64,000 bases of DNA from an uncultured Clostridia bacterium (GCA_944392665.1 CALXXJ010000001.1:96754-160753), one strand, 5' to 3'; shown: positions 340 through 23,392, counted from the stretch's first letter. Notes: generated by a model from the letters alone, not told the origin. Translations and numbers: made by a program.

Positions 340-420
340 GGGACGTTTCTGTTTGGGACAAACTCCCCGTCCTCTATGACAACCTAAAATTCAAAAAAAG
401 GGAAAAATGAGTCCGTCCCC
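340..420. repeat. Dispersed intergenic repeat, copy A (GGGACGTTTCTGTTTGGGACA plus inverted partial copies CCCCGTCC and GTCCGTCCCC)
   Basis: Read directly in the secG-rnr intergenic region. Same core as the copies at 4390, 6703, 18950 and 23363. Confidence 0.8.
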
Positions 421-436
421 AAAATCCCTTTTCTTT

Positions 437-685
437 TTATGCCATATATAATATTCCTAATACAATTGTTAATATTGCAAATACAATTGTTAATATCACT
501 GTCCATCTTTTTTGTTTTCCTTCTTTTGTTCTGCTTTTATTTTTTTCAAAGAAGTTATTAGTTGATGAACCTGTGATTGTTGAAGATAGTCCTGAATCTT
601 CTTTTGATTGTAATAAAGCCAATATAATTAATGCTAATGCTACTATAAAATATATAACAATCAATATCCATTTTGCTATTTCCAT
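437..685 (-). CDS. secG: Preprotein translocase subunit SecG
   Basis: 82 aa with two TM helices flanking a G/S/T-rich loop (LLQSKEDSGLSSTITGSS), which is typical SecG size and layout. Sits next to rnr. Confidence 0.75.
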   Translation of the reverse strand: MEIAKWILIVIYFIVALALIILALLQSKEDSGLSSTITGSSTNNFFEKNKSRTKEGKQKRWTVILTIVFAILTIVLGILYMA

Positions 686-890
686 GTTTTATCTCATTCC
701 TTTCTCTTGTCTAATTGAAAAATTACATTCTAATTATATCCTAATTATTTTTTACTCTTTTTCAATTTGCTAATCGTTTTTTACTCTCGAATTATACTTT
801 GCTATTTTAACATATATTTTTATAAAATGCAAATGTTTTTCACATAAATAGCAATTAATTTTCATTATATGTTACTTTTACAATTCCTTA

Positions 891-1847
891 TTAATTTTCA
901 TTTATAATTTTTTCAATTGATTGTTCTCTCATTTCTTTTATAACTTTACAACTATTGTTTAATTTTTTTTGGTCTTTTTCATTTAATTCAAGATTTAATA
1001 ATTCTCTTACTCCATTTTTATTGATGATTGCTGGTACACCAATATAGATATCTTCTTGTCCATATGCATTATCTAAATAAGTAGAAACTGTTAAAATAGA
1101 ATTTTCATCATCTAAAATAGCTCTTACTAGTCTATTTAATGCCATACCAATTCCATAATATGTTGCTTTTTTCTTCTCAATAATTTCATATGCAGCATTA
1201 ACAACTTCTTCATGCATTTTATTTAATTTATCCATTGGATGATGATTATCTTTCATAACATCTGTGATTCTTTTACATCCTACATAACAATGTTCCCATG
1301 GTACAAATGAAGAATCTCCATGTTCTCCCATGATATATGCATGTATATTTTTACTTGATATTTTTAAATATTGTCCTACTATATATCTTAATCTTGCTGT
1401 ATCTAAAACTGTTCCTGAACCAATAACTTGATTTTTTGGTAATCCAGATACTTCTGCAACAACATATGTCATTAAATCTACTGGGTTACTTGCAACAACA
1501 ATAATTCCATTAAATCCACTTGCCATAATGCTTTTTGTAATATCTTTCATAATTTTTGCATTGACTTCTGCTAATTCTAATCTTGTTTGTCCTGGTTTTT
1601 GTGCAATACCTGCTGTAATGACAACTACTTGTGCATCTTTACATTCATCATAATCTCCTGCTCTAATGATCATTTTTTGTGGTGCATATGGTAATCCATG
1701 TGCTAAATCCATTTCTTCTCCAATGGTTTTATCTTTATTAATATCTATTAAGATAAGTTCTTGAATTCCTCCTCTGTTTAACATTGAGTATGCCATACTC
1801 ATTCCAACAAATCCTGTTCCTACTAAAACAACTTTTCCTTTTTTCAT
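891..1847 (-). CDS. ldh: L-lactate dehydrogenase
   Basis: Contains KVVLVGTGFVG (Rossmann GxGxxG), DINKDKTIGEEMDLAHG, VITAGIAQKPGQTRLEL and GEHGDS, all canonical L-LDH motifs. The ORF track starts at 1874. The ATG at 1847 (MKKGKVVLVG) is preferred because of an AAGGA about 9 nt upstream and the usual LDH N-terminus. Confidence 0.9.
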   Translation of the reverse strand: MKKGKVVLVGTGFVGMSMAYSMLNRGGIQELILIDINKDKTIGEEMDLAHGLPYAPQKMIIRAGDYDECKDAQVVVITAGIAQKPGQTRLELAEVNAKIMKDITKSIMASGFNGIIVVASNPVDLMTYVVAEVSGLPKNQVIGSGTVLDTARLRYIVGQYLKISSKNIHAYIMGEHGDSSFVPWEHCYVGCKRITDVMKDNHHPMDKLNKMHEEVVNAAYEIIEKKKATYYGIGMALNRLVRAILDDENSILTVSTYLDNAYGQEDIYIGVPAIINKNGVRELLNLELNEKDQKKLNNSCKVIKEMREQSIEKIINEN

Positions 1848-1994
1848 ACAATCCATTCCTTTCTCTTTATTCATTTTCCTACAATAGTATACTACTTTTC
1901 TCTTGAAATTTAAAGATTTTTTGTATAATTTATTTTACTTTTTTCTATACTTATGATATAATTTAGCAAATAATCAAAGTAAGGAGTGCTATTT

Positions 1995-2534
1995 ATGAGT
2001 TCACATTCAAATAATACTACTACTTTGGCTGAAAATAAGGTATTAATCCTATATATTTTAAATCTAATTGATGGAGATATTGTTCAAGATGGATTGTTTA
2101 AAATTATTTCTTCTATTAATAACTTAAATTATTTTTATTTTAAACAAATCTTAACAGATTTAATTGATTCAAAGCTAGTAGGTGTTTATACAAAAGAAGA
2201 TGAACAAGTATTAAGAATCACTACTGAAGGAAAAAATGCATACATTCTAACCAAAGATGTTATGCCTGGAATATTAAAATTAAAAGCAGATAGTGTTTTC
2301 AAAAAAGAGTTTTCTAATATTGAGGAAGCTTCTTCTGTTATTGCTGAATTTACTCCAAAAGATGAAAACAATTATACTGTAACATTAAAAATCGTAGAAA
2401 ATAATGAAACCATTTTTGAAGTAAAAACATATGCTGGCTCAAGAGAAAGAGCTAAAAAAATTGTGGAGAATTGGAAAAACCATGCCAATACTATATATCC
2501 CAATATTTTGAATACTTTATTTGAAGGTAATTAA
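1995..2534 (+). CDS. DUF4364-like small cytoplasmic protein (putative winged-helix regulator)
   Basis: The only plus-strand gene. TAAGGAG RBS 8 nt before the ATG at 1995. The N-terminus LAENKVLILYILNLI...NYFYFKQILTDLIDSKLV resembles the clostridial DUF4364 family as I recall it. Not verified by search. Confidence 0.5.
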   Translation: MSSHSNNTTTLAENKVLILYILNLIDGDIVQDGLFKIISSINNLNYFYFKQILTDLIDSKLVGVYTKEDEQVLRITTEGKNAYILTKDVMPGILKLKADSVFKKEFSNIEEASSVIAEFTPKDENNYTVTLKIVENNETIFEVKTYAGSRERAKKIVENWKNHANTIYPNILNTLFEGN

Positions 2535-2668: not shown

Positions 2669-4351
2669 CTAGAATATTGTTATTCTAAATCCAATACTCC
2701 AATATGTTTGTGTACTAGTATTATTGCTTCTAGTATTTACAGTTAGTTCAGAAGAAGCACTGCTCTCATATGATCCACCTCTTATAACACATGGTTGAGA
2801 ACCTATATTTGAATTTTCCAAAGTCCATTCCCATACATTTCCTGCTAAGTCTAATATATTTTGTTTTCCAAAAGCAGTATTGGCTCCTGTTGATAACAAT
2901 ACAGATCTTGCTGAAGTTTTATCATAAGGTGCTTGTAGCCATTGTGAACCATTATTTAGTGAATATTGCGCACTTTCATTTACTATATTGTATATACTTG
3001 ACTGATAATTTCCCCAAGATGTACTATTATTTATTAGTTGAGATTGAATTGTTCCAATCGCTGTTCCCTGTGCTACTGCCTTTGCCTCTATATATTTTTG
3101 TACTAAATCCCATTGAATACCAAATAATAGACTTCCTGAATATCCATTTGTACTTGTCTTACTTGCCAATGTTTGTGCTTGACTACATGTTACCCAATTG
3201 ATTGGATATTGATTTGGTTGAGACATTGGAACTAAATCTGCAATAGATGCACTACCATTATTTCTCTTTGTATTTGTTCCAGCTTCATATCTTGATATAT
3301 AGAAACCTCCATGTTGATAAACACTCTTTAACATTTTTTGCTTTAACTCAGTATATTCACTACTTGATAATCCTGTTGTGTCTTCTGAATAATATGTATC
3401 ACTTGCTGAAGTTCCATTTCTATATGTTGAAGCATAAGTATGTAAATCATTTTCAATTTTTTGATATTCTTCATCTGTAAAATCTTTTATACTAATACCA
3501 GCTGTTGGATATACACTTGCAAGTTTTGGTACTTCTATCCAAACATACTCATTTCCAGAAGAATCTTGAATAACTAATCCTGTTTCTAATGTTGTGCCTT
3601 CTACTTGTGTGAAATCAGAATTTGGTAAATATGGTCTCGTACCAGGTCCATTTGGTAGATTTCCTGTTCCTCCTATAATTTCATCATTTGCTTGATATGA
3701 ATCAATACTTAACGTGATATCCATTGCTGAAGTGGCATCTGGATTGTCTATAAAATATTTTCCTACTGTATATCCCCACTCTGTATCTAATTCATCATTA
3801 TCCCCTGGCCATTTAGCTGTCACTTCTAAGTATGCATCATCCTGTGCTGCTACTTGCAGAGAATGTTCGATTTCCAGTGTGAATGGAAATTTTTCAGGAT
3901 CATTGATGATAATTCCTTTTGACAAGAGTTCTCCTGTTTCTGGATCTGACTCTAATGTTGGTTCTGCTATCATTATATAATTTTCTGTTGTAGGTTGTTC
4001 TCCTTCTGGTACTAATTCATAAGAGACTCCAACAATCGATATTGCTTGTATTTGATAGCTTAAATCTACTAATGCTTCTCCATTATTTAAAATATCTACT
4101 TTTACAACTTGATCTTCCATCTGTGGATATAATGTAGGAAATTCAATTCCAATTGGATTTTCCTTTTTTTCACCATTTATATAATATTCCATATCCCATG
4201 CTGCCACATGTATGTTTAAGCTTGGATTTAATATTTTTGTATAGGCAAACCATGCAAATGTGGTCATAATAAGGGTAAAAATAACGATTAAAAATTTTCT
4301 AAATTGATTCTTTTCGTTTGATTTTCTATGTTTACGCAATATATTGCTCAT
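2669..4351 (-). CDS. Secreted or anchored protein: TasA-class N-terminal signal (TFAWF) plus C-terminal FGE/SUMF1 (formylglycine-generating-enzyme-like) domain
   Basis: N-terminus KFLIVIFTLIMTTFAWFAYTK. The following region is homologous to the 9394..10098 product (AAWDMEYYING...LYPQMED versus TPWDVRYYVDD...LYPGMPD). The C-terminus has GGFYISRYEAG, LAGNVWEWTLE, RGGSY and IGFRI, which are FGE-sulfatase family signatures. Confidence 0.8.
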   Translation of the reverse strand: MSNILRKHRKSNEKNQFRKFLIVIFTLIMTTFAWFAYTKILNPSLNIHVAAWDMEYYINGEKKENPIGIEFPTLYPQMEDQVVKVDILNNGEALVDLSYQIQAISIVGVSYELVPEGEQPTTENYIMIAEPTLESDPETGELLSKGIIINDPEKFPFTLEIEHSLQVAAQDDAYLEVTAKWPGDNDELDTEWGYTVGKYFIDNPDATSAMDITLSIDSYQANDEIIGGTGNLPNGPGTRPYLPNSDFTQVEGTTLETGLVIQDSSGNEYVWIEVPKLASVYPTAGISIKDFTDEEYQKIENDLHTYASTYRNGTSASDTYYSEDTTGLSSSEYTELKQKMLKSVYQHGGFYISRYEAGTNTKRNNGSASIADLVPMSQPNQYPINWVTCSQAQTLASKTSTNGYSGSLLFGIQWDLVQKYIEAKAVAQGTAIGTIQSQLINNSTSWGNYQSSIYNIVNESAQYSLNNGSQWLQAPYDKTSARSVLLSTGANTAFGKQNILDLAGNVWEWTLENSNIGSQPCVIRGGSYESSASSELTVNTRSNNTSTQTYWSIGFRITIF

Positions 4352-4389: not shown

Positions 4390-4429
4390 CTTTTTGTCCT
4401 TTTGGGGACGTTTCTTTTTGGGACATTTT
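4390..4429. repeat. Dispersed repeat, copy B (left arm of a perfect 40-bp inverted pair)
   Basis: CTTTTTGTCCTTTTGGGGACGTTTCTTTTTGGGACATTTT. Its exact reverse complement lies at 6703..6742. Confidence 0.9.
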
Positions 4430-4436: not shown

Positions 4437-5342
4437 CTACATTTCTTTTTCTATTTTTTCTATTTCTTCTCTTGATAATTTTGTTACTTTCATGATTGTT
4501 TCAATTGGCATTTTTTCTTTTAACATTGATTTTGCTATTTCTTTTTTGTTTTGTTCAATTCCTTGTTCTCTTCCTATTTCAATTCCTTCTTTTTTACCTT
4601 TCTTTATTCCGTGTTCTTCTCCACTCTTAAATCCAATATCTTTTCCTGCATCAAATATTGAGTTTTCATCCCTTATTGCCTTCTCTCTCAAAAATGCTAT
4701 TCTTCTTTCTTCTTCATCTCCTGTTAAGTATTCATATTCTTCTTGTGCCTTTTTGATTTCTTTATTTTTACTCATAGCATTTTTTACCTCCTTCTCATCT
4801 ATTTGACTAATAAAATCCATCCACATATCTAACTTTGTTTTCATATCTTTTCTTTGTTTCTTAAATTTAGGAATTTGTATAAAATGGATTTCTATTTTAT
4901 CTGTTAATATTTTATATAAATATTCTCTTCTTAGTCTTGCAATTTCATGATATGGACCTTCGTCAAATTCGTTATAATCTAATATATTAATAGCTATTAC
5001 CTTTTTTATTTCTTTATAGTCCGCACCTTTTTGTAAAACATTATAATATAATCCTGACCAATAAAATAGTGTTCTTTCAATCATATTATATCGATTTATA
5101 ATTTGAATTTCAATATTTACAATTGTCTCTTCATCCACTTTCGCTTTTAAATCTAAAATTCCCAATTTATTACTTTCTAATTGTCTTTCTAAATTCGTAT
5201 CTGCTATTACTTCAATACTTTTTATTTTAATTTGTAAAATTGAATTCAATAAATCTTTTAATATACTTTCATTTCCCTTTTTAGCAAATATTTTCTTAAA
5301 TATGTAATCATTTGTTACTTTTAATTGTGTCTCTCTATTCAA
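4437..5342 (-). CDS. Rpn/YhgA-like PD-(D/E)xK recombination-promoting nuclease / putative transposase
   Basis: N-terminus NDYIFKKIFAKKGNESILKDLLNSIL...LGILDLKAKVDEETIVNIEIQ is characteristic of the Rpn (PDDEXK_2, TIGR01784-type) family. The C-terminal half is a charged helical tail. TTG start at 5342 with AGGAGG 7 nt upstream. Confidence 0.7.
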   Translation of the reverse strand: MNRETQLKVTNDYIFKKIFAKKGNESILKDLLNSILQIKIKSIEVIADTNLERQLESNKLGILDLKAKVDEETIVNIEIQIINRYNMIERTLFYWSGLYYNVLQKGADYKEIKKVIAINILDYNEFDEGPYHEIARLRREYLYKILTDKIEIHFIQIPKFKKQRKDMKTKLDMWMDFISQIDEKEVKNAMSKNKEIKKAQEEYEYLTGDEEERRIAFLREKAIRDENSIFDAGKDIGFKSGEEHGIKKGKKEGIEIGREQGIEQNKKEIAKSMLKEKMPIETIMKVTKLSREEIEKIEKEM

Positions 5343-5897
5343 TAAATTTCCTCCTTTATTTTACTAAATTTTTCTTTTTTCTTCAACTCTTTCTTATTAT
5401 TTTTTGAAATTTTATAAGACTTTTTGTTGTACCTCAATATAAGAACAGTAAACGTGTCCAATCGTTCAAATTCTAAATAATAGTGGATTTTTTATTGAGT
5501 AAAATTTGATATATTGATATAAAGCTAATGAAATTTAAAATCATTCTAAATATAATAAAAAACTAATAATAGAATACAAAATTAATTAATAACTAAACAT
5601 TTTTTATCTATGTATATATATAAACACATTCTTCTAATTTTTTCAACAACATATGCACACTTTTCGTCGCAAATTTCGACAAAATAGTTTTATTCTTAAT
5701 GTCCAGATAAAAATGTCTCAAAGAGATACAAATCTCAATAAGACATATAATTTTTTGAAAAACTATATACTTTTTCAAAAAATTAGTGTATAATTAAATA
5801 AATATTAGAATACTATAATATTGTAGATAGATATTCTACTAGGTCTGAAATAGTTTACTAAATTAGGACCTGACCCGAGTTGATGCCAAGCGTCAAC

Positions 5898-5925
5898 AAA
5901 AGCCATTCATACGAATGGCTTTTTT
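5898..5925. terminator. Rho-independent terminator (bidirectional potential)
   Basis: AAA-AGCCATTC-atac-GAATGGCT-TTTTT. It lies 17 nt downstream of the minus-strand DUF3800 stop. It could also end a plus-strand transcript. Confidence 0.6.
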
Positions 5926-5941: not shown

Positions 5942-6685
5942 TTATATTCTTTTATTTTTTAACAAATTTATAATATGTCTAAAATCTTTACCTCTAAAGA
6001 AAAATTTTTCAGCATTAGTAAATGGAATATTATTTTTCCTTTTATAATCTAGTTTATCAATTACAGTTAGCATATCTGAAACTTGAAATAATCTTTTCTC
6101 TGTGTGATTAAATTTTATTCTTCTTTCTACTTTTGCATTAGTAACGAATAAAGTATCTAATATAGTCGCTAATGTCTCTTGTCCATTATCATAGTAAATA
6201 ACAATTTTATCAAATGCATCTAGGTAGTCTTGATTATTACTTATAAAATTACTAATATCTCTTGCTAATATGATATTTAATTGCATTTTTTTATTTATAT
6301 ATCTTTTATCTACTATAACAGTTCTTATTTTAACTTTTACTCTAATTGAAAAATAAAATATTGCCCAAAATATGCTTTTTCTTTTTTCAAAGTTGAAATG
6401 AGAGTAATCACCTCTTTTGGCAATAAGATATGCTAAATGAATCATACCATTGTAATGAAGAGCACCTAATTTTTTATTTAGATATTTTAATTCATTTTCT
6501 ATTGAATTAGAACTTTCATGTAATGTAAAAGAAACTGCATATAAATCTGAACTTCCTTTCACAAAGCCAAAATCTCCACTTTCATCTACAAATATATTTA
6601 ATCGTTTTATTCTTGATATGTCATATATAAGAATATTGTAAAGAGAAACGTTATAAAGAAACCAAAAATGTCCCCAATTGGACAC
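5942..6685 (-). CDS. DUF3800 family protein (start uncertain)
   Basis: NIFVDESGDFG is the DUF3800 N-terminal signature. The first ~25 codons of the tracked ORF (to 6757) are encoded by the dispersed repeat (VLLGTFLFGTF), so they are probably not coding. The only in-frame canonical start closer to DESG is the GTG at 6685, which has a weak RBS. The true N-terminus may be disrupted. Confidence 0.5.
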   Translation of the reverse strand: MSNWGHFWFLYNVSLYNILIYDISRIKRLNIFVDESGDFGFVKGSSDLYAVSFTLHESSNSIENELKYLNKKLGALHYNGMIHLAYLIAKRGDYSHFNFEKRKSIFWAIFYFSIRVKVKIRTVIVDKRYINKKMQLNIILARDISNFISNNQDYLDAFDKIVIYYDNGQETLATILDTLFVTNAKVERRIKFNHTEKRLFQVSDMLTVIDKLDYKRKNNIPFTNAEKFFFRGKDFRHIINLLKNKRI

Positions 6686-6742
6686 AACTCTCAATAAGAC
6701 AAAAAATGTCCCAAAAAGAAACGTCCCCAAAAGGACAAAAAG
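6665..6742. repeat. Dispersed repeat, copy C (partial unit 6665..6684 plus right arm 6703..6742 of the 40-bp inverted pair)
   Basis: AAAATGTCCCCAATTGGACA ... AAAATGTCCCAAAAAGAAACGTCCCCAAAAGGACAAAAAG. Confidence 0.9.
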
Positions 6743-6782
6743 AACCATAATTACCAAACTATTTGTTTGATTATTATGGTTC
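6733..6782 (-). terminator. Rho-independent terminator after the major TasA-like gene
   Basis: Minus-strand reading: GAACCATAAT..(CAAAC-aaata-GTTTG)..ATTATGGTTC followed by TTTTT. Confidence 0.5.
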
Positions 6783-6831: not shown

Positions 6832-8112
6832 TTAGCCACCTACACCATCTGTTGCTGAACCTGGTTTGCTTAATCCAACATCAATTGTTAATCCTCCACC
6901 TAGTGAAGCATAGTTGATACAGTCAACGTCTTGTCCTTCTAGCCATACATACATTCTCATATGGATATATTTACCTGGTGCAATTGCAAAATCAGTTGTA
7001 CCATCTTTAACACTCTTTAATTGAATTGGATTGTCTGCTATGATACCTGTATTAGGTGTTTTTACTGTATTTTGTTTTACTAATCCAGCTGCTGCTGCTG
7101 CTGTATCCCAATTATATATATCAGCTATAGTTTGTGAAACAGATGTTGCTGTTAAAGCATATGTAGGTACTGGATCATCTGCATCAAATCTACTTGTACC
7201 TGATGTTAAACTTGTTCTATCTGTTGATGATAATGTTAATTTGTTGTTATTTTGTACTATGTAATCAACATGTGCTGCATATGTTGTAATTGTTGGACTT
7301 GTTCCAACTTGTGCACCACTTGCATTTGGTTCCCAAATAGCTACATCTGTGATTAAACGATCAGCACCAGTAGTCGCTTGTAATATATCTGCTTGACTTG
7401 GTGTATTATTAACTAATGTCGTATCCTCTAAATCTGAATCCTCATCAAATATAGCAAATGCTACTCTTAATGTGTTTTGTAAACCTGTTGACTCTCTTGA
7501 TGATTCATTTAAATTAATTGATGAATTGCTTTCAATTCTAAGTAAATCTTTTGTATTTCCTGTAATCGCTTCTGTTGAAGAAGAGTTTTGTAGGAAGAAG
7601 TCAATTGCATAATATCCTGAATCAGCATCAGCTGCTAATTTTGCAACATTAGTTAATTTCTTTCCTGACTCAACATCTCCTCTATACATATTTAAATCAT
7701 TTAATCCAATACCTTCATTGCTTTGTGCTGTTGTAGAAGCTGGTAATAATTCACTTGGTACTAAATTTGTACGTGCTTGATAAGTATACTCTCCACCTGC
7801 ACCTTGTTTCCAAGGATTTACTAATGATACCATATCATCATCTGTCCATCCATTGTTTGTATTGGTTTGTGCAAAATATGCTGATGCATTATCTGTCAAA
7901 TCAATTTCGTTTGCCCAGTTTAAAGCATCTAATGAAATTTGTAGACCTTCAGCTACGTTTACTTGTCCTTCTAGTCCACCTAATGTTACGTTTCTCTGTG
8001 TAGAGAACCACGCATAGGTTGCTACAATCAATAAGATTGCTGTAAATGCTACTAATAAAATTAATGCATTTAATCTTTTTCTTGAGTTTCTTTGAATGTT
8101 TTCTTCTCTCAT
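6832..8112 (-). CDS. TasA/camelysin-class secreted fibre-subunit candidate (SipW-cognate signal), paralogue 1
   Basis: N-terminus ALILLVAFTAILLIVATYAWFSTQRNVTLGG. Good RBS (AAGGGAG). Clear paralogue of 61080..62216, sharing ATYAWFSTQRNV, TGLQNT.RVAFA, DVAIWEPN, DYIVQNNNK, QTIADIY.WD and WLEGQDVDCINYAS. Has its own terminator. Confidence 0.85.
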   Translation of the reverse strand: MREENIQRNSRKRLNALILLVAFTAILLIVATYAWFSTQRNVTLGGLEGQVNVAEGLQISLDALNWANEIDLTDNASAYFAQTNTNNGWTDDDMVSLVNPWKQGAGGEYTYQARTNLVPSELLPASTTAQSNEGIGLNDLNMYRGDVESGKKLTNVAKLAADADSGYYAIDFFLQNSSSTEAITGNTKDLLRIESNSSINLNESSRESTGLQNTLRVAFAIFDEDSDLEDTTLVNNTPSQADILQATTGADRLITDVAIWEPNASGAQVGTSPTITTYAAHVDYIVQNNNKLTLSSTDRTSLTSGTSRFDADDPVPTYALTATSVSQTIADIYNWDTAAAAAGLVKQNTVKTPNTGIIADNPIQLKSVKDGTTDFAIAPGKYIHMRMYVWLEGQDVDCINYASLGGGLTIDVGLSKPGSATDGVGG

Positions 8113-10098: not shown

Positions 10099-10113
10099 AA
10101 TACCTCCATTCTA

Positions 10114-10962: not shown

Positions 10963-10965
10963 AGT

Positions 10966-11589: not shown

Positions 11590-11669
11590 TTTCTTTTGTC
11601 TTTTATTGTATTAGAAAAATCAGCTCTTATTTTGGAGTCCATGCCAGATTTTTCCTGTATACAACAAGG

Positions 11670-13423: not shown

Positions 13424-13458
13424 AAAGCTCACCTCTTTTACTTTTATCTTTTATTTTA

Positions 13459-14169: not shown

Positions 14170-14246
14170 TCCTTTTCCTTTCCATTTTTTTTCAATTTTT
14201 CTTTTATGTACTCTTCTTTTTCGTTTTTCTTCGGTTATTGCTTTTA

Positions 14247-15098: not shown

Positions 15099-16220
15099 TT
15101 ATTTTAACCTCACTTCTTTTGCTTGTATCATATATTTTTCAATTCGTTCTTTAAATCTATCTTCTATAGGTTTTAAAGAAATTAATTTTTTCGTTTTCAT
15201 CACCAAGATTTTTTCTGAAATTAATTTATTCAACTCTTTCTCTGTCATATCTGGATTTAATTCTATAATTCTTTCTATCATGGCATCTGTTAATTGTTTT
15301 GCCAACTTATTATCTTCAACACCTGATTTTGCTTTTCCTTTTAATGTATTACTATCATCTGTCTTTCTAAAAATAGAATGTAACAAAAATATGTCTTCAT
15401 CTACTAATTCCTTTACAATTCCTTTTTCTTCATATTGACTCGTCTCATTAACTGTTTTATCATTTAATTCCATTTGCTCACTTAAATAGTTCCATAATTT
15501 TACAGCATATTGAAAGTTAACATTTTTTAACAAAACATTTGTCATTTTTAATGGTGCTTTTACATATGTTGCTTTTTTGGCAACCAATGTTTGATAAACC
15601 TCAGTTTGTTTTAACATTTTTAAAGATCTTTCTATACTTGCTATTCTCTCTGCTGTTTTTTCTGTCTTTGTAATCCCTGTTATCCTTTCAGACTCATATT
15701 GCATCTTTACATTAATTTTTTCTTTTCCTAATTTGACTTCTGCTTGATAATCTGCTTTTTGATGATTTTTCCCTTTATATTCTTCATCATCTTGTTTTTT
15801 TCTTAAATACATATAATCTTCAATTAGTTTTATTAATGTATATAAAAATCTATTTTCATAATTAAGAAAAGTTTCTTCCTTATAGGCATTTAAAATCTTT
15901 TTAGGTGTTACTTCTCCACTTTTTTGATTAAATCTATCTACTAGATTTACATGTTTTGATAAATGTTTTACACTGTCTACTGTTACTTTTTTAATTAATT
16001 CTATTTTGATAATTTCTTCTTCTGTAACAATATTTTTTATTTCTTTCGTTAATGCTTTTTCTAAATATGGAATCGTAAATTCAACCATATCCATCCATTC
16101 ATCATTTTCTACAATATGGCTTCTATCTACATCCATCATTAACTTAGAATCAATTTTACTAAGAAACTTTGTTGAATTTTCTTTTTCCATATTGGCTAAT
16201 TTCACAATATTTAAGTCCAT
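15099..16220 (-). CDS. Cytoplasmic protein with possible McrC/DUF2357-like N-terminal region and no recognisable nuclease motif
   Basis: ETFLNYENRFLYTLIKLIEDY resembles the (D)TxENRF(L/V)K motif of McrC/DUF2357 partners of McrB-type AAA+ proteins. It sits directly downstream of the McrB-like gene. The ATG at 16220 (GGAGGG RBS) is preferred over the tracked TTG at 16241, which lies inside the palindrome. Confidence 0.6.
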   Translation of the reverse strand: MDLNIVKLANMEKENSTKFLSKIDSKLMMDVDRSHIVENDEWMDMVEFTIPYLEKALTKEIKNIVTEEEIIKIELIKKVTVDSVKHLSKHVNLVDRFNQKSGEVTPKKILNAYKEETFLNYENRFLYTLIKLIEDYMYLRKKQDDEEYKGKNHQKADYQAEVKLGKEKINVKMQYESERITGITKTEKTAERIASIERSLKMLKQTEVYQTLVAKKATYVKAPLKMTNVLLKNVNFQYAVKLWNYLSEQMELNDKTVNETSQYEEKGIVKELVDEDIFLLHSIFRKTDDSNTLKGKAKSGVEDNKLAKQLTDAMIERIIELNPDMTEKELNKLISEKILVMKTKKLISLKPIEDRFKERIEKYMIQAKEVRLK

Positions 16221-16233
16221 TTTTCCCTCCGAG

Positions 16234-16308
16234 GTTGCCAAAGGGGACGGGTTGATTTGGCAACTTTTTTTATGTAAGTTGCCAAATCAACCCGTCCCCT
16301 TTGGCAAC
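16234..16308. promoter_or_regulatory. Perfect 32-bp inverted repeat (75-nt hairpin) filling the intergenic gap
   Basis: GTTGCCAAAGGGGACGGGTTGATTTGGCAACT (16234..16265), an 11-nt loop, then the exact reverse complement (16277..16308). Contains the GGGGACG core of the dispersed repeat. Confidence 0.85.
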
Positions 16309-16310
16309 TT

Positions 16311-17864
16311 TTAAGACATCTTTTTAAGTCTTAATAAGAATTCTATACATTCACTCATTTTGCCTTTTCCAAAGTTTTTATCTAAAAACTCAATATAACC
16401 ATCAATTTCATCTCTAATTAAAGTTAAGTTTAATCCTTCAAATTTTCTTAATACTTTTTTAGCCATGAAATAGTCTACTGCTTCTGTTTCGTCTCCTCCG
16501 CAAGCTACATATACTGGCACAAATTTTCTCATATGTTTTACAATACGGTTACCAAATGCAACTCTAAAGTGTTTGATTGTATAATCATCCATGTCTTCTA
16601 TCTTTTTCAAAGTTGCTGGTGATATTGCATAATCTGTCATTGCTTTTTCAAATAAACCGTTTAAGTATGAGTAGTTTACGTCAAGAGCTTCCACATCATC
16701 TGGTTCAAATGCAACACCTTTTTCATTAATATCAATAGGCATTGCTCTATCATATACCTTATCTGTTACCATGAATGTTGAGTCGTCATTGTTAATTGTT
16801 CCGATATACCATGCATTTGGTGGAATCTGCAACTTTCCTTTGATTAATTTCTTTGGATCAGTTGGCCATGAACTTTGTACGATTTCAATTTTCCAATCTT
16901 TTGTACTGTGCATTTCTAGAATTGATAACATTTCTGCAAAATAATATTCCACACGCGCTAAGTTCATCTCGTCTAGGATAACTGTATAGATTTCATCTGT
17001 ATATCCTGCTTCATATAAATATGCTAAAAAGTCTGTTTCATTAAATTTCTTGGTGAACTCATTTAAGTATCCAAAAATATCTGTTCTATCTCTCCAAGAT
17101 GGTTGCACAGATGCAACACATGAAGGATGTTTTACAAAGTTACCCCATGCAAGAGATATAGATGTTTTACCAGTACCAGAAATACCTTGTAAAATAACAA
17201 GTTTAGTTGATGCAATTGCTGATACAAATAGTCTTATCATCTTTTCACTATAATATAGTTTTAACTTGCTTGCAGCAAAATTTCTAAACATATAACAAAA
17301 TTCTGGTAATGTGAAATTATTATGATAGTCTTTTTGTTTATATTTCGCAAATTCTTCATCTAATGCTGTTAACTTAGAGAACCTACTTTGTGTATTAGGA
17401 TCAATTTGTTCTTCATTATTTGCTTCTGATTGTGCGGCAGCAAGTGCAGCTTTATCTATACCTGCACTGATACCATTTGGATTTACACCCAATTCTGGTG
17501 ACTTCATATTTAACAATTTTAGTTTTTCGTCTACTAATTCTTCTACTTGTCCATTTAAGGTATCTATTTGTTTTAATAATTCTTCTTGGTCAATAATCTT
17601 TTTTCTCCATTTCATATGTCTTTTTAAGAAAAAGATTATAATTCCAACAATACCTCCAATAACGATTAGCATAAGAATAATTGCTAAACCTGTTAAAAAC
17701 CATTCTGAGACTTGAAAGTCATTTGCATAATGTTGGATAATTCCCCAATATCTTGGTATATTAAATATATTTACAATCCCATTCCAAAGACCACTGAATA
17801 TATCTCCAAATCCAGAAAAGAATTGACTTAAAAATTCAAATAAAAATCTTCCATATGTTTCCAT
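16311..17864 (-). CDS. Membrane-anchored McrB-like (AAA_5/COG1401-type) AAA+ NTPase
   Basis: N-terminal hydrophobic segments (FLTGLAIILMLIVIGGIVGIIIFFL) and a coiled coil (EELLKQIDTLNGQVEELVDEKLKLL). Then Walker A LQGISGTGKTS, SVQPSWRDRTDIFGY, Walker B plus the McrB signature VILDEMNLARVEYYFAEMLSILE, and IPPNAWYIGTINNDDSTFMVTDKVYDRA. AGGAG RBS. Confidence 0.75.
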   Translation of the reverse strand: METYGRFLFEFLSQFFSGFGDIFSGLWNGIVNIFNIPRYWGIIQHYANDFQVSEWFLTGLAIILMLIVIGGIVGIIIFFLKRHMKWRKKIIDQEELLKQIDTLNGQVEELVDEKLKLLNMKSPELGVNPNGISAGIDKAALAAAQSEANNEEQIDPNTQSRFSKLTALDEEFAKYKQKDYHNNFTLPEFCYMFRNFAASKLKLYYSEKMIRLFVSAIASTKLVILQGISGTGKTSISLAWGNFVKHPSCVASVQPSWRDRTDIFGYLNEFTKKFNETDFLAYLYEAGYTDEIYTVILDEMNLARVEYYFAEMLSILEMHSTKDWKIEIVQSSWPTDPKKLIKGKLQIPPNAWYIGTINNDDSTFMVTDKVYDRAMPIDINEKGVAFEPDDVEALDVNYSYLNGLFEKAMTDYAISPATLKKIEDMDDYTIKHFRVAFGNRIVKHMRKFVPVYVACGGDETEAVDYFMAKKVLRKFEGLNLTLIRDEIDGYIEFLDKNFGKGKMSECIEFLLRLKKMS

Positions 17865-17884
17865 CTTTTACTTCTCCTGTTTCT

Positions 17885-18931
17885 TTATTTTAGTATTACA
17901 TTATCAAAAATTGCTTTGTTACTCTTTATTTCTTTATATAATGCCAATTTTTGTGGTACAATCACCATTTTAAACATTTTTAATTTTTCTACATCTTCTA
18001 TACTTTTTACTGTATTATCTAATGTAATCGTAAAATTGTAACCTTTTTTTGTATATCCTAAAATACTTTTTTGATTTTTTATATAATCAGAGTACATAAT
18101 ATTCAAATGTATTTTATCTTGCAATTCTTGATTTCCTAGAATTGACAATATACTGTCTAATTTTTGTTTCTTTTTAAATAGTGTACTTGCAAATTCTGCA
18201 ATATATGTATCATCAAAATTTCCATTTACGATATCTGAAATGACAACAACACTTAATAATATATATTCTACTTGCAATTTATCTTCTGCAACAATTCCTT
18301 CATTATATACTTTTTCTATCGCTGCTTCACTATATTGCATAGGCATTTTTACCTTTTGCTCTAATGTCACAAAATATACATCATCTTTCCCTTTACTATT
18401 TTCAAATTGTAAAGCAAATTCATCTGTATCAAATTTATCTAAAAATACTTCTTTTTCAATCATATCTTTTTTGATTTCTTCATACAATTTTTTTTCAGTA
18501 CTTTGTGAAATTTCTATTTTAAATAACGCACTTGCTGTTTGTATCATTCTACTAATAATTTCTTTTATATTATCAATTGACTTAAAATTTTCTACATTTC
18601 TAACATTATCAAAAAATAAAATATATGCAAACAATTCCTTTAAATTATGAATTTTATTTAATTGTTCTTGCTTTTCATTTAAGTTTTGAGATTCTTCTTC
18701 ACATTTTTTCATTAGAATATCTTCTTTATATTCTAATTCTTCTAATATTCTTAAGTAAAATGCTCTTGCAGGTGTATCTGTATTTTGAATATTATAATAT
18801 CTAGCATTAATATATGTTTTTAAATATTCATTTACTAAATTTTCATCATATTGTTTATCCAACATGGTTTTCATGTATTTTTTTATTTTCTTTTCTGTAA
18901 ATGTTATATATGTATCCATTAAATTGTTCAT
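17885..18931 (-). CDS. Cytoplasmic protein, unknown function
   Basis: No TM or signal. The ATG at 18931 (AGGAGG 6 nt upstream; MNNLMDTYITF) is preferred. The tracked start at 18985 would translate the dispersed repeat. Confidence 0.65.
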   Translation of the reverse strand: MNNLMDTYITFTEKKIKKYMKTMLDKQYDENLVNEYLKTYINARYYNIQNTDTPARAFYLRILEELEYKEDILMKKCEEESQNLNEKQEQLNKIHNLKELFAYILFFDNVRNVENFKSIDNIKEIISRMIQTASALFKIEISQSTEKKLYEEIKKDMIEKEVFLDKFDTDEFALQFENSKGKDDVYFVTLEQKVKMPMQYSEAAIEKVYNEGIVAEDKLQVEYILLSVVVISDIVNGNFDDTYIAEFASTLFKKKQKLDSILSILGNQELQDKIHLNIMYSDYIKNQKSILGYTKKGYNFTITLDNTVKSIEDVEKLKMFKMVIVPQKLALYKEIKSNKAIFDNVILK

Positions 18932-18940
18932 TTCTACCTC

Positions 18941-19010
18941 CTGTTTGTCCATTGGGGACGTTTCTGTTTGGTCAATTTTGTCCATCGGTACCTGGTCCGT
19001 TTTGTCCCAT
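18941..19010. repeat. Dispersed repeat, copy D
   Basis: GTCCATTGGGGACGTTTCTGTTTGGTCAATTTTGTCCATCGGTACCTGGTCCGTTTTGTCCC. The 22-nt core at 18950..18971 is the exact reverse complement of 23363..23384. Confidence 0.85.
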
Positions 19011-19017
19011 TTCGTCG

Positions 19018-19590
19018 CTAAATGATTTGTTCTGCATTAATATCTAGTTTTACATATTCAATCAAATCAGAATATTCTGCATTCGTATCATTTTCCTTTG
19101 GAAATGTTACTTTAATAACATAATTATCTGTCAAATCTTCTCCTTGTGTCATTTGTGATGGATCTATTATGATTTCTCTGTAATATGTGCCATCTTCATC
19201 AGTAACGATATTTTGCTCTGTCGTTATAATTTCTCCATTTTTTTCGATTACATACTCTAATGGTAAATTTGTTGTTGTTGTTATTTTTAAATTATATTCT
19301 AAATCTGTTTCTGCTCTTTTGTTGATTGTTCCATCTTCATCTGCTTCAAAATTTGATACCGAAAAAGAATAGTCAAATGAATTATTTGATGGATATATAT
19401 CTTCTATGATAATACTTGCTGATTGAAAATCATCATGAAACATCCAGAAAGCAACATCTACATCTTTTTCTGATGTCGCCACTGTTTCATATCTTGATAA
19501 TGTATTTCTTATAAAAATAATAGCGACTATAATAATTGCTATTAAAAAAAGTATGATGATACTTTTTTTCAATTTTTTCTTATCCAACAT
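19018..19590 (-). CDS. Small anchored or secreted protein, TasA-related class
   Basis: N-terminus SIIILFLIAIIIVAIIFIRNTLSRYETV. The ATG at 19590 with an AGGTGA RBS is preferred over the GTG at 19602. It overlaps the upstream peptidase gene by 11 nt. Confidence 0.7.
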   Translation of the reverse strand: MLDKKKLKKSIIILFLIAIIIVAIIFIRNTLSRYETVATSEKDVDVAFWMFHDDFQSASIIIEDIYPSNNSFDYSFSVSNFEADEDGTINKRAETDLEYNLKITTTTNLPLEYVIEKNGEIITTEQNIVTDEDGTYYREIIIDPSQMTQGEDLTDNYVIKVTFPKENDTNAEYSDLIEYVKLDINAEQII

Positions 19591-20104
19591 CTTTTTTCTC
19601 ACCTATTTTTTCTTTATATGAAATCATCACTATAAATAATATTATCGTTATAATCATTGGTATAATAACATGCATATCTGTAAATACTTGTTTCCAAACT
19701 TCTACATTATTGATAATACATACTGCTTTACCTATCACTTGATCTTTTTTTATTGGCTCATCCTGGATATTGTTATAATCTCCTTTAGTAATGATAGTAT
19801 CTCCATCTATTTGTTCTATTCTATGTGTAATTAATACATCATCCTGTTTGTATGTTATAATATCATCTTCCTTTATTTCATCACCTATTTTAATGATTAT
19901 AATATCACCTACTTCTATGGTTGGTGACATACTTCCAGTTTCTGTACTAAGTATAGAATATCCAAATATATTCACATATTCTTTATTTTGTATGTTTAAT
20001 TGTATAAATCCCCATATGACAAGAATAGCAATGATACTCAATACAAAAATTATTAGGTCTACAATTACTTTTTTAATAATTTTTAATATTTCTTTATGGT
20101 TCAT
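19580..20104 (-). CDS. SipW-type signal peptidase I paralogue (canonical motifs)
   Basis: ETGSMSPTIEVGD, LITHRIEQI, TKGDYNNIQDEP and a C-terminal TM. It overlaps the upstream gene by 11 nt. Confidence 0.8.
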   Translation of the reverse strand: MNHKEILKIIKKVIVDLIIFVLSIIAILVIWGFIQLNIQNKEYVNIFGYSILSTETGSMSPTIEVGDIIIIKIGDEIKEDDIITYKQDDVLITHRIEQIDGDTIITKGDYNNIQDEPIKKDQVIGKAVCIINNVEVWKQVFTDMHVIIPMIITIILFIVMISYKEKIGEKKDVG

Positions 20105-20735
20105 TGCCTATCACTTCTCCCGTATATTGTTTTAAATTAATTTCTAATGGAATGTTTATCTTTGCATCCTGTGTTTGTCCCAATTCTGAATCAGCTTCAT
20201 TATTTTCTTCTACATTTTCCCATTCAAAATATAATCGAATATGATTTAAATATTTGTCATTTATTGTTGCAATAGGAATAATAGCCTCATGCTCATTGGT
20301 TTCATATGTGGTATATACATCGTCATTTGTCAATTGTTCTGTCTCTCCAGGCTTTTGAAAATAATTTTCTACATTTACTAATTTTAATTTTGCCTCTGCT
20401 ACTGCATCTAATTTTACATTTAATGTATATAAAATAGATACATCTGTATTTGTCGGGTCTATAATAATCTCAAAATATGCCTGTGTTCCTGGAGCCATCT
20501 TTTGGCTTTTAACATGTTCAGAATCCAAATATGTCAAATTGTCTTCTGTCATGTTAAAAGTCAAATTTTCCTCTCCTGAAGATATATCTGTTTCATTTAC
20601 TTTGATGGACCATGCACCTAATAAACTTGTATAATCTCCTTCTAATTGATCTTTATATAAAGCATACATGTTAGCTATTTGGAATAAGGTTATAATTAAC
20701 ATTATTAATACTAAAATTCTTAATAATTTTTTCAT
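20094..20735 (-). CDS. Small anchored or secreted protein, TasA-related class
   Basis: N-terminus LRILVLIMLIITLFQIANMYALYKDQ. Contains APGTQAYFEIIIDP (compare VPGQTGYFEMLIDY in 13459..14169). Its start abuts the upstream stop. Confidence 0.7.
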   Translation of the reverse strand: MKKLLRILVLIMLIITLFQIANMYALYKDQLEGDYTSLLGAWSIKVNETDISSGEENLTFNMTEDNLTYLDSEHVKSQKMAPGTQAYFEIIIDPTNTDVSILYTLNVKLDAVAEAKLKLVNVENYFQKPGETEQLTNDDVYTTYETNEHEAIIPIATINDKYLNHIRLYFEWENVEENNEADSELGQTQDAKINIPLEINLKQYTGEVIGNEP

Positions 20736-21533
20736 TTATTCTTCCTCTTTTGATGATTTTGTAGCTTTTGCTTTAGTAGTAGCTGTTGCTGCTTTTTTTG
20801 TTGTGCCTGTTTTTCTTGTTGTACTTGCTTTTTTTGCTGTACTAGTCTTTGAACCTGCACTTGTCTTGGTTCTTGTACTTGTACTTGCTCTAGTCGTTGT
20901 TTTTGGACTGGATGTTCTAGTTGTTCTTGTATTCTTCTTTGGTCTTACAACTTCTTCGTCTTCCTCATCATCTTCCTCATCTTCATCTGCCTCAATTTCT
21001 ATTGCTTCTTGTTTCTTTAGTTTGTTAAGATATTTAATTTCCATAACTAATTCAAATACTTCTTGTAAGAATAGTAATAATGATACCACTACGATACAGA
21101 ATAAATATCCCCATCTAGATTCTAATAGATTTAATATATATCCCCAACCTTCTATAACAATTGTATCATCAACTTTTCCTATAAAATAATCACTTGCATA
21201 ACGTTCTTCATTATCTACAATATATACTGTATGTGAACCTTGTTGTGTTTTTCCTTGTAAAGTTGTACTGATAACTTCATATTCTGAGCTATTCAATACT
21301 TTATACATAAATATTTCGTCACCAACTTGGACATTTCTATCATTTGTTTCTTTTATTAATAGTATAGAACCTTGTTTATATGTAGGCTCTAATGAATCAT
21401 CTGTGACTATATAAATTGTATATCCGCCTATTTCACTATTATTATAATCATTGTAAGATAGTAATAATACGGTTACTGTAATTGCAATGATAGCATATAG
21501 TACAAATAATATAGTTCCTAGTACTTTTTTCAT
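20736..21533 (-). CDS. Divergent SipW-like peptidase paralogue with acidic then T/K/S/A-rich tail
   Basis: TM, then TDDSLEPTYKQGS (Ser box retained). No clear [TS]HR or TKGD.N boxes. A second TM, then EDEEDDEEDEE and TTRTSSPKTTTRASTSTRTKT.... Confidence 0.6.
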   Translation of the reverse strand: MKKVLGTILFVLYAIIAITVTVLLLSYNDYNNSEIGGYTIYIVTDDSLEPTYKQGSILLIKETNDRNVQVGDEIFMYKVLNSSEYEVISTTLQGKTQQGSHTVYIVDNEERYASDYFIGKVDDTIVIEGWGYILNLLESRWGYLFCIVVVSLLLFLQEVFELVMEIKYLNKLKKQEAIEIEADEDEEDDEEDEEVVRPKKNTRTTRTSSPKTTTRASTSTRTKTSAGSKTSTAKKASTTRKTGTTKKAATATTKAKATKSSKEEE

Positions 21534-21591
21534 CTTTTATCTTCCTTGCATTATATATTTAGGTTTTTTATCTGGTTGTACCTATAAACCT

Positions 21592-22047
21592 TTATTCATT
21601 AGTTACTTTTTGTAATTGTATTGATTGTGTACCTGTTAAATTACCATTTAATATAACACTGATATCATATTGTTCTCCAACACCTAAGCTTTGAATCCAT
21701 GTTTGCATTTGTCCTAATACCTCTCCATCAGCACCAACTAAAATAGCATTTAAACTTTCATTTTCTACTGCAGTTTGTGTTGTGTTTAATATAGACATAG
21801 ATACCATTGTTTGATCTTGGTCATCTAAATATTCCATATAAATATTTGATACTTCCATATCGCTATATGTTGTGTCTGGTAATGGAATCACAGATTGTTG
21901 TTCTTCTCCAGTAGTTTCCTCATTATTGTTAACATTTCTAACAATTAAAACAATTGCAACCACTAAAATGATAATCGCAATAATGGCTATCAATATAATT
22001 CCTAACATTTTCTTACCTTTTCTTACTTTTCTAGTTTTTTTCTCCAT
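21592..22047 (-). CDS. Small N-terminally anchored extracellular protein
   Basis: Basic N-terminus, one TM (LGIILIAIIAIIILVVAIVLIV) and a ~100-aa beta-rich domain. AGGAGG RBS. Confidence 0.65.
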   Translation of the reverse strand: MEKKTRKVRKGKKMLGIILIAIIAIIILVVAIVLIVRNVNNNEETTGEEQQSVIPLPDTTYSDMEVSNIYMEYLDDQDQTMVSMSILNTTQTAVENESLNAILVGADGEVLGQMQTWIQSLGVGEQYDISVILNGNLTGTQSIQLQKVTNE

Positions 22048-22275
22048 GTTTTCCTCCTTCTTTTCTACATTTTTTTATACTTTTCTACTATATTTTATAC
22101 CATAACTTTTTTTTAAAGTCTATACTTTTACGAATAAAAATTATATATATTTTGTGACAATTCACATGCAAAATCATATACACTTTATACTTCCAAATAT
22201 TACCTATATAATATTGATTAGAACCCTATACATACAATGTACATATTGGGTTCTTATCAATATCATTTTTTATCT

Positions 22276-23155
22276 TTATGATTCATCATTTACTGTAATG
22301 ACAGATGTAGTATCACCTGAAGGATATGTATAATCTTGGGTCATATCCACTTTATAAAATTTAATATTTTTAGCAGATTCTTTGTCCATTGTAAAAACAA
22401 ACTTCTCCACATATCCATCACTATTGACTTCTTCACTACCTTCTAGTCTATTGATATATGCTTCATCATTTAAGTCAATTCTTACAACATTTGGATCAAA
22501 CTCTAACGAAACATTTCCTCCTGTATCATGAGTATTTATCATTTTTAAAGTTAAATAATTTCTATTTGCAACATCTTCTATTTCATAACTATTTGCTAAA
22601 ACTTGTTGTATTCTTAATGTGATTTCACAAGAAATTTCTTTTTGATATGGTTCTTGTGTGCTTGCTTTTATTCTAATCGTAATTGTGTCATTTTGTTCAA
22701 TTTGTGTTTTAGGTGTTACTACAATTTTTATCCTGCTAACATTATTTTGAGCTTCTCCCTCTTTTGCATATATGACTCCTGTTGTTTCTGTAGGCCCACC
22801 TTCTTCATTAATACCGTAAAGTTACTTTATCTGTATCTGGCGTTTCACACGAAAGAGCATACTCTAAATCATAATCTAACCTCAATAATGTATTTTGATA
22901 ACTATATAAATCAAAATTGATTTCATAATTATCTACACCACCCCAATTTTCATATTGGTAAGTCGCATTATCAAGAGTCAATAAATCACTTGTAAAATAA
23001 AATTCTTTTGAAGTAAAATATGCTTCTCTTGCTTGATAATAAATATATCTACCAAATACTGAACATGTAATGACTATTACAAGTACAATAAACAATAGCA
23101 TGGTTCTTTTTATTCTTTTTTCTTTTCTTATTCTTGCATGTTTTCTTCTTTCCAT
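22276..23155 (-). pseudogene. Frameshifted TasA-related anchored protein gene (115-aa and 88-aa ORF-track pieces belong together)
   Basis: Own translation: after the stop at 22808 the +1 frame is open all the way (YGINEEGGPTETTGVIYAKEGEAQNNVSRIKIVVTPKTQIEQNDTITIRIKASTQEPYQKEISCEITLRIQQVLANSYEIEDVANRNYLTLK) and runs straight into MINTHDTGGNVSLEF.... The span is 880 nt (3n+1). Both frames are open only in 22811..22821. Confidence 0.7.
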
Positions 23156-23322
23156 ATCTTTTCCTTTCTCGTTTTGGCTTTTGTCGATATAGTTTTTATT
23201 TTAATTTCATCATTTTTCTAAGTGGACTGAGGATTATTGTTTTTGAATTCATCGACGAATGTGCCGTGGAATAGATGTATAAATTCTTAGGTTTAAATAA
23301 ATGATGAAACTTAAATATGCTC

Positions 23323-23392
23323 AAAATGTCCAAATGGAAACGTCCCCATTGGACAAAATGTCCCAAACAGAAACGTCCCCAATGGGACATTT
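23323..23392. repeat. Dispersed repeat, copy E (two tandem ~33-nt units, opposite orientation to B and D)
   Basis: AAAATGTCCAAATGGAAACGTCCCCATTGGACAAAATGTCCCAAACAGAAACGTCCCCAATGGGACATTT. Confidence 0.9.

Follow-up and report, generated by a model that had tools for sequence, protein, structure and literature searches.

In a stretch of 64,000 nucleotides from an uncultured Clostridia bacterium (GCA_944392665.1 CALXXJ010000001.1:96754-160753; its whole length is called the window here), short repeats recur between ordinary genes, and the locus raises the question of what they are and to which machinery they belong. An earlier note on this DNA had proposed a REP/MITE-like element (repetitive extragenic palindrome/miniature inverted-repeat transposable element), an array of binding sites for a regulator, or a recombination site. 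The family consists of intergenic DNA hairpins and belongs to a clade of uncultured, low-GC Clostridia of the gut; the system is REP/REPIN-like and probably of the TIRYT type, not an array of regulator binding sites. The repeats are probably REP-like elements and substrates of a single-copy chromosomal Y1 (HUH) transposase of the RAYT (REP-associated tyrosine transposase)/TIRYT kind, which is itself flanked by the same units. Direct support comes from the covariation of the hairpin, its clade-wide intergenic dispersal, the unit-flanked transposase gene in each species checked and the rapid turnover of units between strains.

Each unit is a small DNA hairpin whose stem varies in sequence and is at most ~9-11 bp long, and whose 13-nt loop starts with an invariant GGGGACG. 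The commonest unit reads TGTCC(A/C/T)wTTGGGGACGTTTCykTTTGG(G)ACATTTT, and at least 12 distinct stem sequences retain complementarity, among them TGTCCA, GTTGCCAAA, GTTCCCATT, TGTACCTTT, TGTCTCTTT, CGGGATTTT, GATGTTTTT, CTGTTTTT, AGTGCA, CAGGGATT and AAAGGAC. Flanks that differ between copies and yet pair with each other include GTTGCCAAA…TTTGGCAAC, GTTCCCATT…AATGGGAAC, TGTACCTTT…AAAGGTACA, CGGGATTTT…AAAATCCCG and GATGTTTTT…AAAAACATC, as well as AGGGA…TCCCT, in which the strands are swapped. Every GGGGACG in the low-GC sequences (G+C fraction of at most 0.35) was inspected, including those outside the pattern used for the genome scan. A contiguous Watson-Crick stem of at least 6 bp closed the loop in 38% of the 143 occurrences, compared with 0.7% after shuffling and 1-3% with other G-rich motifs. 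A wider search found a stem of at least 5 bp in 144 of 180 distinct contexts, and one helix register, in which GGGGACG and 6 further nt form the 13-nt loop, was common to 105 of these 144 stems. When 55 distinct contexts were aligned without gaps, 64.6% of the cells were paired versus 48.3% after shuffling, and the covariation score was 0.45 versus 0.21 (0.16-0.22 when the partners were slid); none of 500 shuffles reached either value. GC, CG, UA and AU pairs all occur in the core stem and G-U pairs are few, which fits pairing of a DNA type. Folded as DNA, well-paired variants reach -7 to -11 kcal/mol with z values of about -4 to -5.

The hairpin, with GGGGACG on the 5' side of its loop, is thus the conserved feature instead of the periodic GGAC/GTCC half-sites that had been described. 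A transcription factor or nucleoid protein reading double-stranded GGGAC/GTCCC half-sites throughout a large regulon would agree with the recurrence of GGGAC-type motifs in each unit, with the palindromes such as GGGACATTTTGTCCC that tandem arrays create and with the several copies just upstream of a ribosome-binding site (RBS). However, the flanking half-sites covary as a stem and are swapped for unrelated complementary sequences, even from strand to strand as in AGGGA…TCCCT, while the hairpin is preserved. Copies are also found just as often at 3' ends and between convergent genes, the neighbouring genes have no common function, and coding DNA shows no avoidance of GGGAC, which was counted 71 times in 438 kb against an expectation of 72.8. 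Operator sites are therefore extremely unlikely, and the regulator array is not supported, there being no promoter or orientation bias. The same 438 kb removed GGGAC as an avoided restriction-like site, which a weak deficit outside the repeats of the window (4 observed versus 9.6 expected) had suggested. CggR, CtsR and Spo0A operators, sigma-factor promoters and type III antitoxin repeats were dropped as candidates, since copies are present at 3' ends as well and point in either direction.

The family is widespread. A scan of one genome per species with the pattern GGGACGTTTCNNTTTGG matched at least 118 stretches, of which the low-GC set comprised at least 80 loci from at least 41 species-level assemblies, with a full unit in all those listed. 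These assemblies are labelled uncultured Clostridia, Clostridium, Eubacteriales or Bacillota and derive from chicken, rabbit, mouse, goat and other samples. High-GC matches lacked the unit flanks and were chance matches. Among 2.9 million viral contigs, five matches to the pattern and no genuine unit were found, and carriage by phages was rejected. The only match in Rfam at the gathering threshold was a tRNA and no family corresponded to the repeat, and a literature search by sequence string returned nothing relevant.

In the window, the 22-nt core GGGGACGTTTCTnTTTGGGACA was searched with at most 3 mismatches and matched five times (339, 4404, 6707(-), 18954 and 23359(-)), compared with no match in 100 dinucleotide-preserving shuffles. 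The heptamer GGGGACG occurs eight times in the 64 kb (414-, 4404, 6722-, 16243, 16293-, 18954, 23341- and 23374-); all eight are intergenic, fall within the sites listed by the earlier note and occur in both orientations. About 12 units lie within 24 kb of ordinary genes; the window as a whole has ~28% G+C and carries nearly all its genes on the minus strand. Past 23.4 kb no copies follow because two giant open reading frames (ORFs) occupy the next 36 kb. All copies that had been reported do exist, as each site was also read in the sequence: the degenerate copy near 5698-5748, the two tandem units at 23319-23391, the palindrome, the copy between secG (437..685) and rnr, and the copy just ahead of the AGGAGG of gene 17885..18931. 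The name rnr rests on the RNB/S1 domains that the downstream gene has in conspecific contigs. The artificial ORF extensions that the repeats create were found as well (5942..6757 and 17885..18985), and the view that this is not a CRISPR array holds, since the units of a tandem follow one another with no spacer between them and the copies are scattered.

Units occur in four arrangements, namely solo, in 34-nt tandem arrays, as inverted doublets and as composite palindromes that join two hairpin types; the module of the second type, Z, was also found in L044, L105 and L120-L128. A frequent tandem form comprises 1.6 units and ends in GGGACACATCT. Inverted doublets make up 19 of about 80 clusters, have spacers of 10-330 nt and turn their TGTCC (outer) ends outwards in every case. 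From 126 profile hits in the window and 80 loci, only 5 of 104 clusters lie within ORFs. ORFs were called by a simple script, so that the distances between units and ORFs are approximate. On the stop side, the offset of the stop codon from the outer end is -1 to +4 nt in about half of the cases, and on the start side the outer end lies 0-8 nt ahead of the RBS. Solo units have a median of 14 nt between their outer side and the nearest ORF, compared with 105 nt for the inner side. Units are spread over tandem, convergent and divergent gene pairs as the background is, and no orientation bias relative to transcription was seen, with about 23 sense versus 22 antisense units in tandem gene pairs. 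The even orientation and the background spread argue against a role as strand-specific RNA leader, promoter or operator. The proposed location in 5' leaders near an RBS holds for several copies; there is no bias to promoter regions, and units are equally common at 3' ends.

A role at the RNA level, in which selection keeps transcript hairpins for termination, 3'-end protection or processing between cistrons, has to be weighed against these positions. Many units stand directly 3' of stop codons, the consensus ends in a T run, and doublets within operons would give very stable RNA duplexes (-64 kcal/mol for the palindrome of the window). In addition, units are retained at one gene junction across species, for instance after ligA in L031, L075 and L084, where the family members in L031 differ from those in L075 and L084, and REPs of E. 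coli have such secondary roles (PMC3733652). The balance of sense and antisense units does not support it, and units before an RBS and in divergent gaps are as common as those after genes. Unit C is preceded by a separate canonical terminator, hairpins with a loop of 13-21 nt are ill suited to intrinsic termination, the stem has few G-U pairs and no Rfam family matches. It would also leave the unit-flanked transposase gene unexplained. An RNA-level function is therefore regarded as unlikely to be the main explanation, but it could be a secondary, exapted role of the units.

The transposase connects the hairpins to an enzyme. A search for the HUH motif over the ORFs of the fetched loci gave two proteins, encoded at L095:775-1569 (264 amino acids) and L080:2796-3587 (263 amino acids); the length ranges from 256 to 264 amino acids among species. 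They carry the HUH motif NHVHLVIY and the catalytic-tyrosine motif RYIH(Q/K)NP and match Pfam Y1_Tnp with 62.5 bits (L095) and 50.4 bits (L080) at a cut-off of 23. The best NCBIfam model was the REP-associated tyrosine transposase (73.9 and 59.5 bits, respectively), compared with 25.9 bits for the IS200 model against the 73.9. An AlphaFold model (predicted local distance difference test score of 89.7) shows a helical C-terminal domain at residues 150-257, for which only sub-threshold Pfam matches were obtained (3H, HTH_3, HTH_23 and Sigma70_r4_2). The top fold match in the PDB was 4ER8 (E = 3.6e-7, target TM-score 0.72), the REP-associated tyrosine transposase of E. coli (TnpA_REP) bound to a REP hairpin, and the transposases of IS608, ISDra2 and IS200 ranked lower. 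4ER8 was also the sole, marginal hit of a profile search against PDB sequences (E = 0.046), whereas a single-sequence search against them gave no hit.

In a metagenome protein collection, the transposase family has 1884 members at E <= 1e-10, many of them on contigs of ~1 kb, the pattern to be expected where repeats on either side of the gene interrupt the assembly. The context of five more members with 84% to 56% identity (L148-151, L152-154, L155, L170 and L172) was fetched. Together with L095 and L080, an inverted pair of units flanks the transposase gene in seven of seven species, so that the locus resembles a doublet with a gene inside. In the five further members, GGGGACG reads on the coding strand upstream of the transposase, and its complement does so downstream. 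The flanking unit type is that of the own genome, with GTTCCC stems in L080, GCTCC stems in L155 and GGGGACAG in L152 and L172. The neighbouring genes were compared for the six loci other than L080, and the order radical-SAM – small ORF – transposase – radA is found in these six species; L095 matches L151 across the locus, and in L155 disA follows radA. P0004, from the transposase family, was found together with the window's species in four samples, and coverage in two SPAdes assemblies matched (19.63 for P0004 versus 19.71 and 20.60; 25.40 versus 27.30). P0004 is thus very probably the transposase copy of the window's species, which is present in samples such as ERZ24773442 and ERZ26781233. 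An all-versus-all BLAST of 521 ORFs for a recurrent unit-flanked protein family returned ligA orthologues only. A further hairpin, AAAAAGTATAGCA-N15-TGCTATACTTTTTTT, lies ~40-70 nt upstream of the transposase start and is conserved in every species examined (L095:1590-1650 and L148:1400-1470, and also in L152, L155, L170 and L172); such conservation is unusual in a terminator, and the hairpin may control expression of the transposase.

Contigs that encode proteins identical to those of the window were used to compare conspecific strains, and nearly all differences among them fall at repeats. In the gap between secG and rnr, the doublet of ~235 nt is complete in one strain group, a single arm plus 24 unrelated nucleotides is found in the window and three other strains, and a third group has an 11-nt duplication; unit A of the window is the remaining arm of the doublet that other strains keep complete. 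Unit B is present in one copy in the window versus two tandem copies in L078 and L122, and the site of unit E has two units or one, depending on the strain. At the site 16234-16308, which lies upstream of a DUF2357 gene, most strains have a GTTGCC palindrome, L130 has a 240-nt doublet of the common type and L135 a composite palindrome together with a different RBS. The sampled coding flanks of L135 are 100% identical (100-nt windows, up to 1.5 kb upstream and 1 kb downstream), and with such flanks the import of an old allele by homologous recombination could also account for its composite palindrome. In L120-L128, a composite palindrome with a unit and a Z hairpin on each side lies between the stop codons of rnr and of a DUF3953 gene, to the left of the window start. 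Its spacer of 170-260 nt is collapsed to 77 nt in one strain. In L122 and L125, it is inverted relative to seven strains (100% identity over 113 nt on the opposite strand) and carries an extra insertion of ~90 nt.

The inverted spacer brings up an inverton- or shufflon-like system, in which a site-specific invertase would flip the spacer of a doublet and switch the expression of neighbouring genes. The species does invert DNA elsewhere, at an unrelated 25-nt inverted repeat near 23220 whose segment is inverted in L131 versus L129. However, many doublet spacers are just 10-13 nt long (e.g. 16265-16277) and cannot invert, most units are solo or tandem, and the inverted example sits between convergent gene ends instead of ahead of a gene. 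Neither the window nor the neighbourhood of the units contains an invertase gene, and arms of ~70 nt suffice for inversion by RecA-dependent recombination or template switching. An inverton is therefore judged very unlikely. The suggested recombination site is right only in the loose sense that the arms are places of inversion, deletion and replacement between strains, and no dedicated recombinase beyond the Y1 enzyme is indicated.

A related idea takes the units for attC-like borders of cassettes in an integron-like system, or for portable homology by which cassettes are exchanged. Units lie at the edges of the DUF3800 cassette (5749-6704), which the sister species L078 lacks, and doublets occupy the gaps between stop codon and RBS in the way attC sites do. 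Only one such cassette difference was seen, neither the window nor the loci yielded a tyrosine integrase, and the housekeeping genes secG, rnr, ligA and radA are flanked by units as well, so that cassette boundaries can hardly be credited.

Rapid turnover and a unit-flanked enzyme point to the REP-like system, in which the transposase would mobilise the units. By analogy with TnpA_REP of E. coli and with IS200/IS605, the enzyme would bind and cleave the hairpins, GGGGACG would serve as recognition or cleavage tag, and the turnover of units would be driven by the enzyme. In such a mechanism, a unit in single-stranded DNA, for example on the lagging-strand template, would fold into its stem and 13-nt loop, and the enzyme would recognise the hairpin together with the invariant GGGGACG on the 5' side of the loop. 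It would then cut and rejoin single strands, by which units and doublets might be copied, excised or exchanged at intergenic sites. Doublets would be non-autonomous miniatures of the transposase-containing pair, and their long inverted arms would also favour inversion, deletion and slippage through ordinary recombination or replication errors.

Several points weigh against this assignment. The window itself contains no such transposase gene, and the enzyme is assigned to the species by shared samples and coverage. The NCBIfam RAYT score of 73.9 lies below the equivalog cut-off of 80. In about 9 of 126 units, GGGACA replaces TGTCC at the 5' stem position and breaks the stem, and in the commonest subfamily the four loop-proximal pairs are mismatched and alternative small hairpins are possible. 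The GTAG / GT[AG]G at the 5' foot of REP hairpins is missing from the Clostridia units. Finally, the differences between strains could be explained by homologous recombination, slippage or imported alleles without any enzyme.

Comparison with known systems helps to place the repeats. REP/BIME elements and REPINs with their RAYT (TnpA_REP) in Proteobacteria such as E. coli, Pseudomonas and Stenotrophomonas are likewise short intergenic palindromes that occur solo, clustered or as inverted doublets. They also share a single-copy, vertically inherited Y1/HUH gene flanked by units (REPtron), a unit type that changes with the enzyme, repeats as the major intergenic polymorphism between strains, and the fold, as 4ER8 is the best match. 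Apart from the missing GTAG foot, the Clostridia units differ by the invariant GGGGACG tag inside a 13-nt loop, and the geometry of recognition may differ from that of E. coli TnpA_REP. Many stem families per genome share this one tag, the enzyme is about 100 residues longer than the REP enzyme and has the helical C-terminal domain, and the hosts belong to a low-GC Clostridia clade instead of the Proteobacteria.

The closest published description is that of TIRtrons, in which RAYT-like proteins (TIRYT) are flanked by inverted repeats sharing GGGGWSAS; some of these repeats form dispersed families, described as only moderately abundant, whose members are arranged as dimers or clusters (Di Nocera et al. 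2013, PMC3733652). The likeness lies in a longer RAYT-like protein, in flanking inverted repeats with a GGGG-initiated motif and in the possible membership of these repeats in such dispersed families. GGGGACAG of L152 and L172 fits GGGGWSAS exactly, and GGGGACGT or GGGGACGG elsewhere fits seven of the eight positions. TIRYT was placed in Y1 subclass 2.1, long proteins with a C-terminal helix-turn-helix (HTH), and REP-like secondary structures were not found beside subclass 2.1 genes (Quentin et al. 2018, PMC6006769). Here, in contrast, clear covarying hairpins are present, and the C-terminal extension is a helical domain with sub-threshold HTH-type matches only. The text of PMC3733652 and PMC6006769 does not name Firmicutes for such systems.

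IS200/IS605 elements (IS608, ISDra2) share the Y1/HUH catalytic fold and the absence of target-site duplication, and they recognise subterminal DNA hairpins, as would be the case here by analogy. They are multi-copy mobile insertion sequences, whereas the present gene is single-copy, syntenic across species and scores better with the RAYT model of NCBIfam. Correia/NEMIS and dRS3/NIME of Neisseria, BOX and RUP of pneumococcus, STAR of Staphylococcus and ERIC are also small, modular, structured intergenic repeats that form GC-rich islands in AT-rich spacers beside coding ends and vary between strains. They differ in having DDE or other transposases or no known enzyme, several of them have target-site duplications, and the motif is absent. 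A classical MITE was rejected too, because no direct repeats were seen by inspection to flank the doublets, no DDE transposase is involved and a PDDEXK_2 gene lies near units in only 2 of 80 loci. From the REP/MITE-like element of the earlier note, the REP-like part is thus supported by compensatory stem changes, intergenic dispersal, inverted doublets and the unit-flanked RAYT-like gene, and the MITE part is not.

The copies in the window are collected in Table 1.

Table 1. Hairpin units and related elements in the window
Feature	Position	Strand	Remarks
Unit A (TATCCAATTTGGGACGTTTCTGTTTGGGACA)	330..360	+	Outer end adjoins the rnr RBS; motif match and sequence reading
Type Z hairpin, second hairpin type (AGGGATTTTGGGGACGGACTCATTTTTCCCT)	399..429	-	3' of the secG stop codon
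Unit B (TGTCCTTTTGGGGACGTTTCTTTTTGGGACATTTT)	4395..4429	+	Between the PDDEXK_2 gene stop and the RBS of gene 2669..4351
Degenerate AT-shifted copy (…ATGTCTCAAAGAGATACAAATCTCAATAAGACA)	5698..5748	-	One edge of the DUF3800 cassette
Partial unit (TGTCCAATTGGGGACAT)	6667..6684	-	Profile match, E = 0.039
Unit C	6703..6737	-	39 nt identical to unit B; directly 3' of the terminator hairpin of gene 6832..8112
Inverted doublet, REPIN-like, variant hairpins	16234..16308	.	Two GTTGCCAAAGGGGACGGGTTGATTTGGCAAC copies, 13 nt apart; perfect palindrome; occupies the whole gap from stop codon to RBS
Unit D and degenerate extension	18945..19010 (unit = 18945-18983)	+	Outer end adjoins the RBS of gene 17885..18931
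Tandem units E1 and E2	23319..23391	-	14 nt after the giant-ORF stop codon

Other features of the window were recorded alongside. Gene 4437..5342 (-) encodes an Rpn-type PD-(D/E)XK 'transposase' that carries an HTH_Rpn_C tail. A copy with an internal deletion and ~86% nucleotide identity was found in another species at an unrelated place (L086:3542-4065), which suggests that this gene moves between genomes. As a mobiliser of the repeats it was rejected: it is flanked by inverted units in the window and L078, but homologues occur in just 2 of 80 loci and the copy in L086 has no adjoining units. The palindrome TTGTCGAAATTTGCGACGAAAAG at 5660-5682 (-), also present in L141 and L078, contains a TGTCGAA similar to a Spo0A box and is found upstream of the PDDEXK_2 gene and, in one strain, also upstream of the DUF3800 gene. 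Present in the window and in conspecific strains, the DUF3800 cassette carries a terminator of its own and is bounded by the direct repeat CTCAATAAGACA in addition to the units.

The two giant ORFs, 23404..51717 (-) with 9437 amino acids and 51602..59245 (-) with 2547 amino acids, overlap by 116 nt and may be one frameshifted gene or two adjacent genes. The second carries DUF285 repeats, and the larger product varies from 9370 to 10118 amino acids among strains in which it is complete. Directly downstream of the giant ORF, a long run of genes on the same strand (9394..23155, -) encodes proteins without Pfam match and includes signal-peptidase-like genes of the S24/S26 type (10966..11589 and 19580..20104). 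Upstream of the 115-amino-acid gene 22808..23155 lies the separate invertible segment, in other strains ~240 nt flanked by the 25-nt inverted repeat AAGTGGACTGAGGATTATTGTTTTT. It is inverted in L131:3568-3909 versus L129:3576-3955 (94.6% identity, opposite strand), and the window (23220-23244) and L136 retain one arm, and so represent a half-deleted, locked form. The run may be a surface-fibre or secretion-related operon under this inverton.

The REP-like reading accounts for the conspicuous GC-rich repeats and the artificial ORF extensions in widespread uncultured gut Clostridia, and probably for contig breaks too. It widens the range of REP/RAYT-type systems to a low-GC Gram-positive clade and offers the GGGGACG-loop hairpin as a concrete candidate substrate for long Y1 transposases, the targets of which are unclear in the literature (PMC6006769). 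Units are the main sites of difference among otherwise identical strains, which is relevant to strain typing and possibly to differences in expression. For mobile DNA, the loop-borne tag, the many stem families per tag, the long Y1 enzyme and the fast turnover of intergenic modules are of interest. More tentatively, this might be the first clear REP/REPIN-type system in Firmicutes, with an enzyme of the long HTH-tailed Y1 group (subclass 2.1/TIRYT) that uses a loop tag with any complementary stem and actively swaps the modules between stop codon and RBS. If true, the repeats would be a built-in source of intergenic, possibly regulatory, variation in a compact gut genome.

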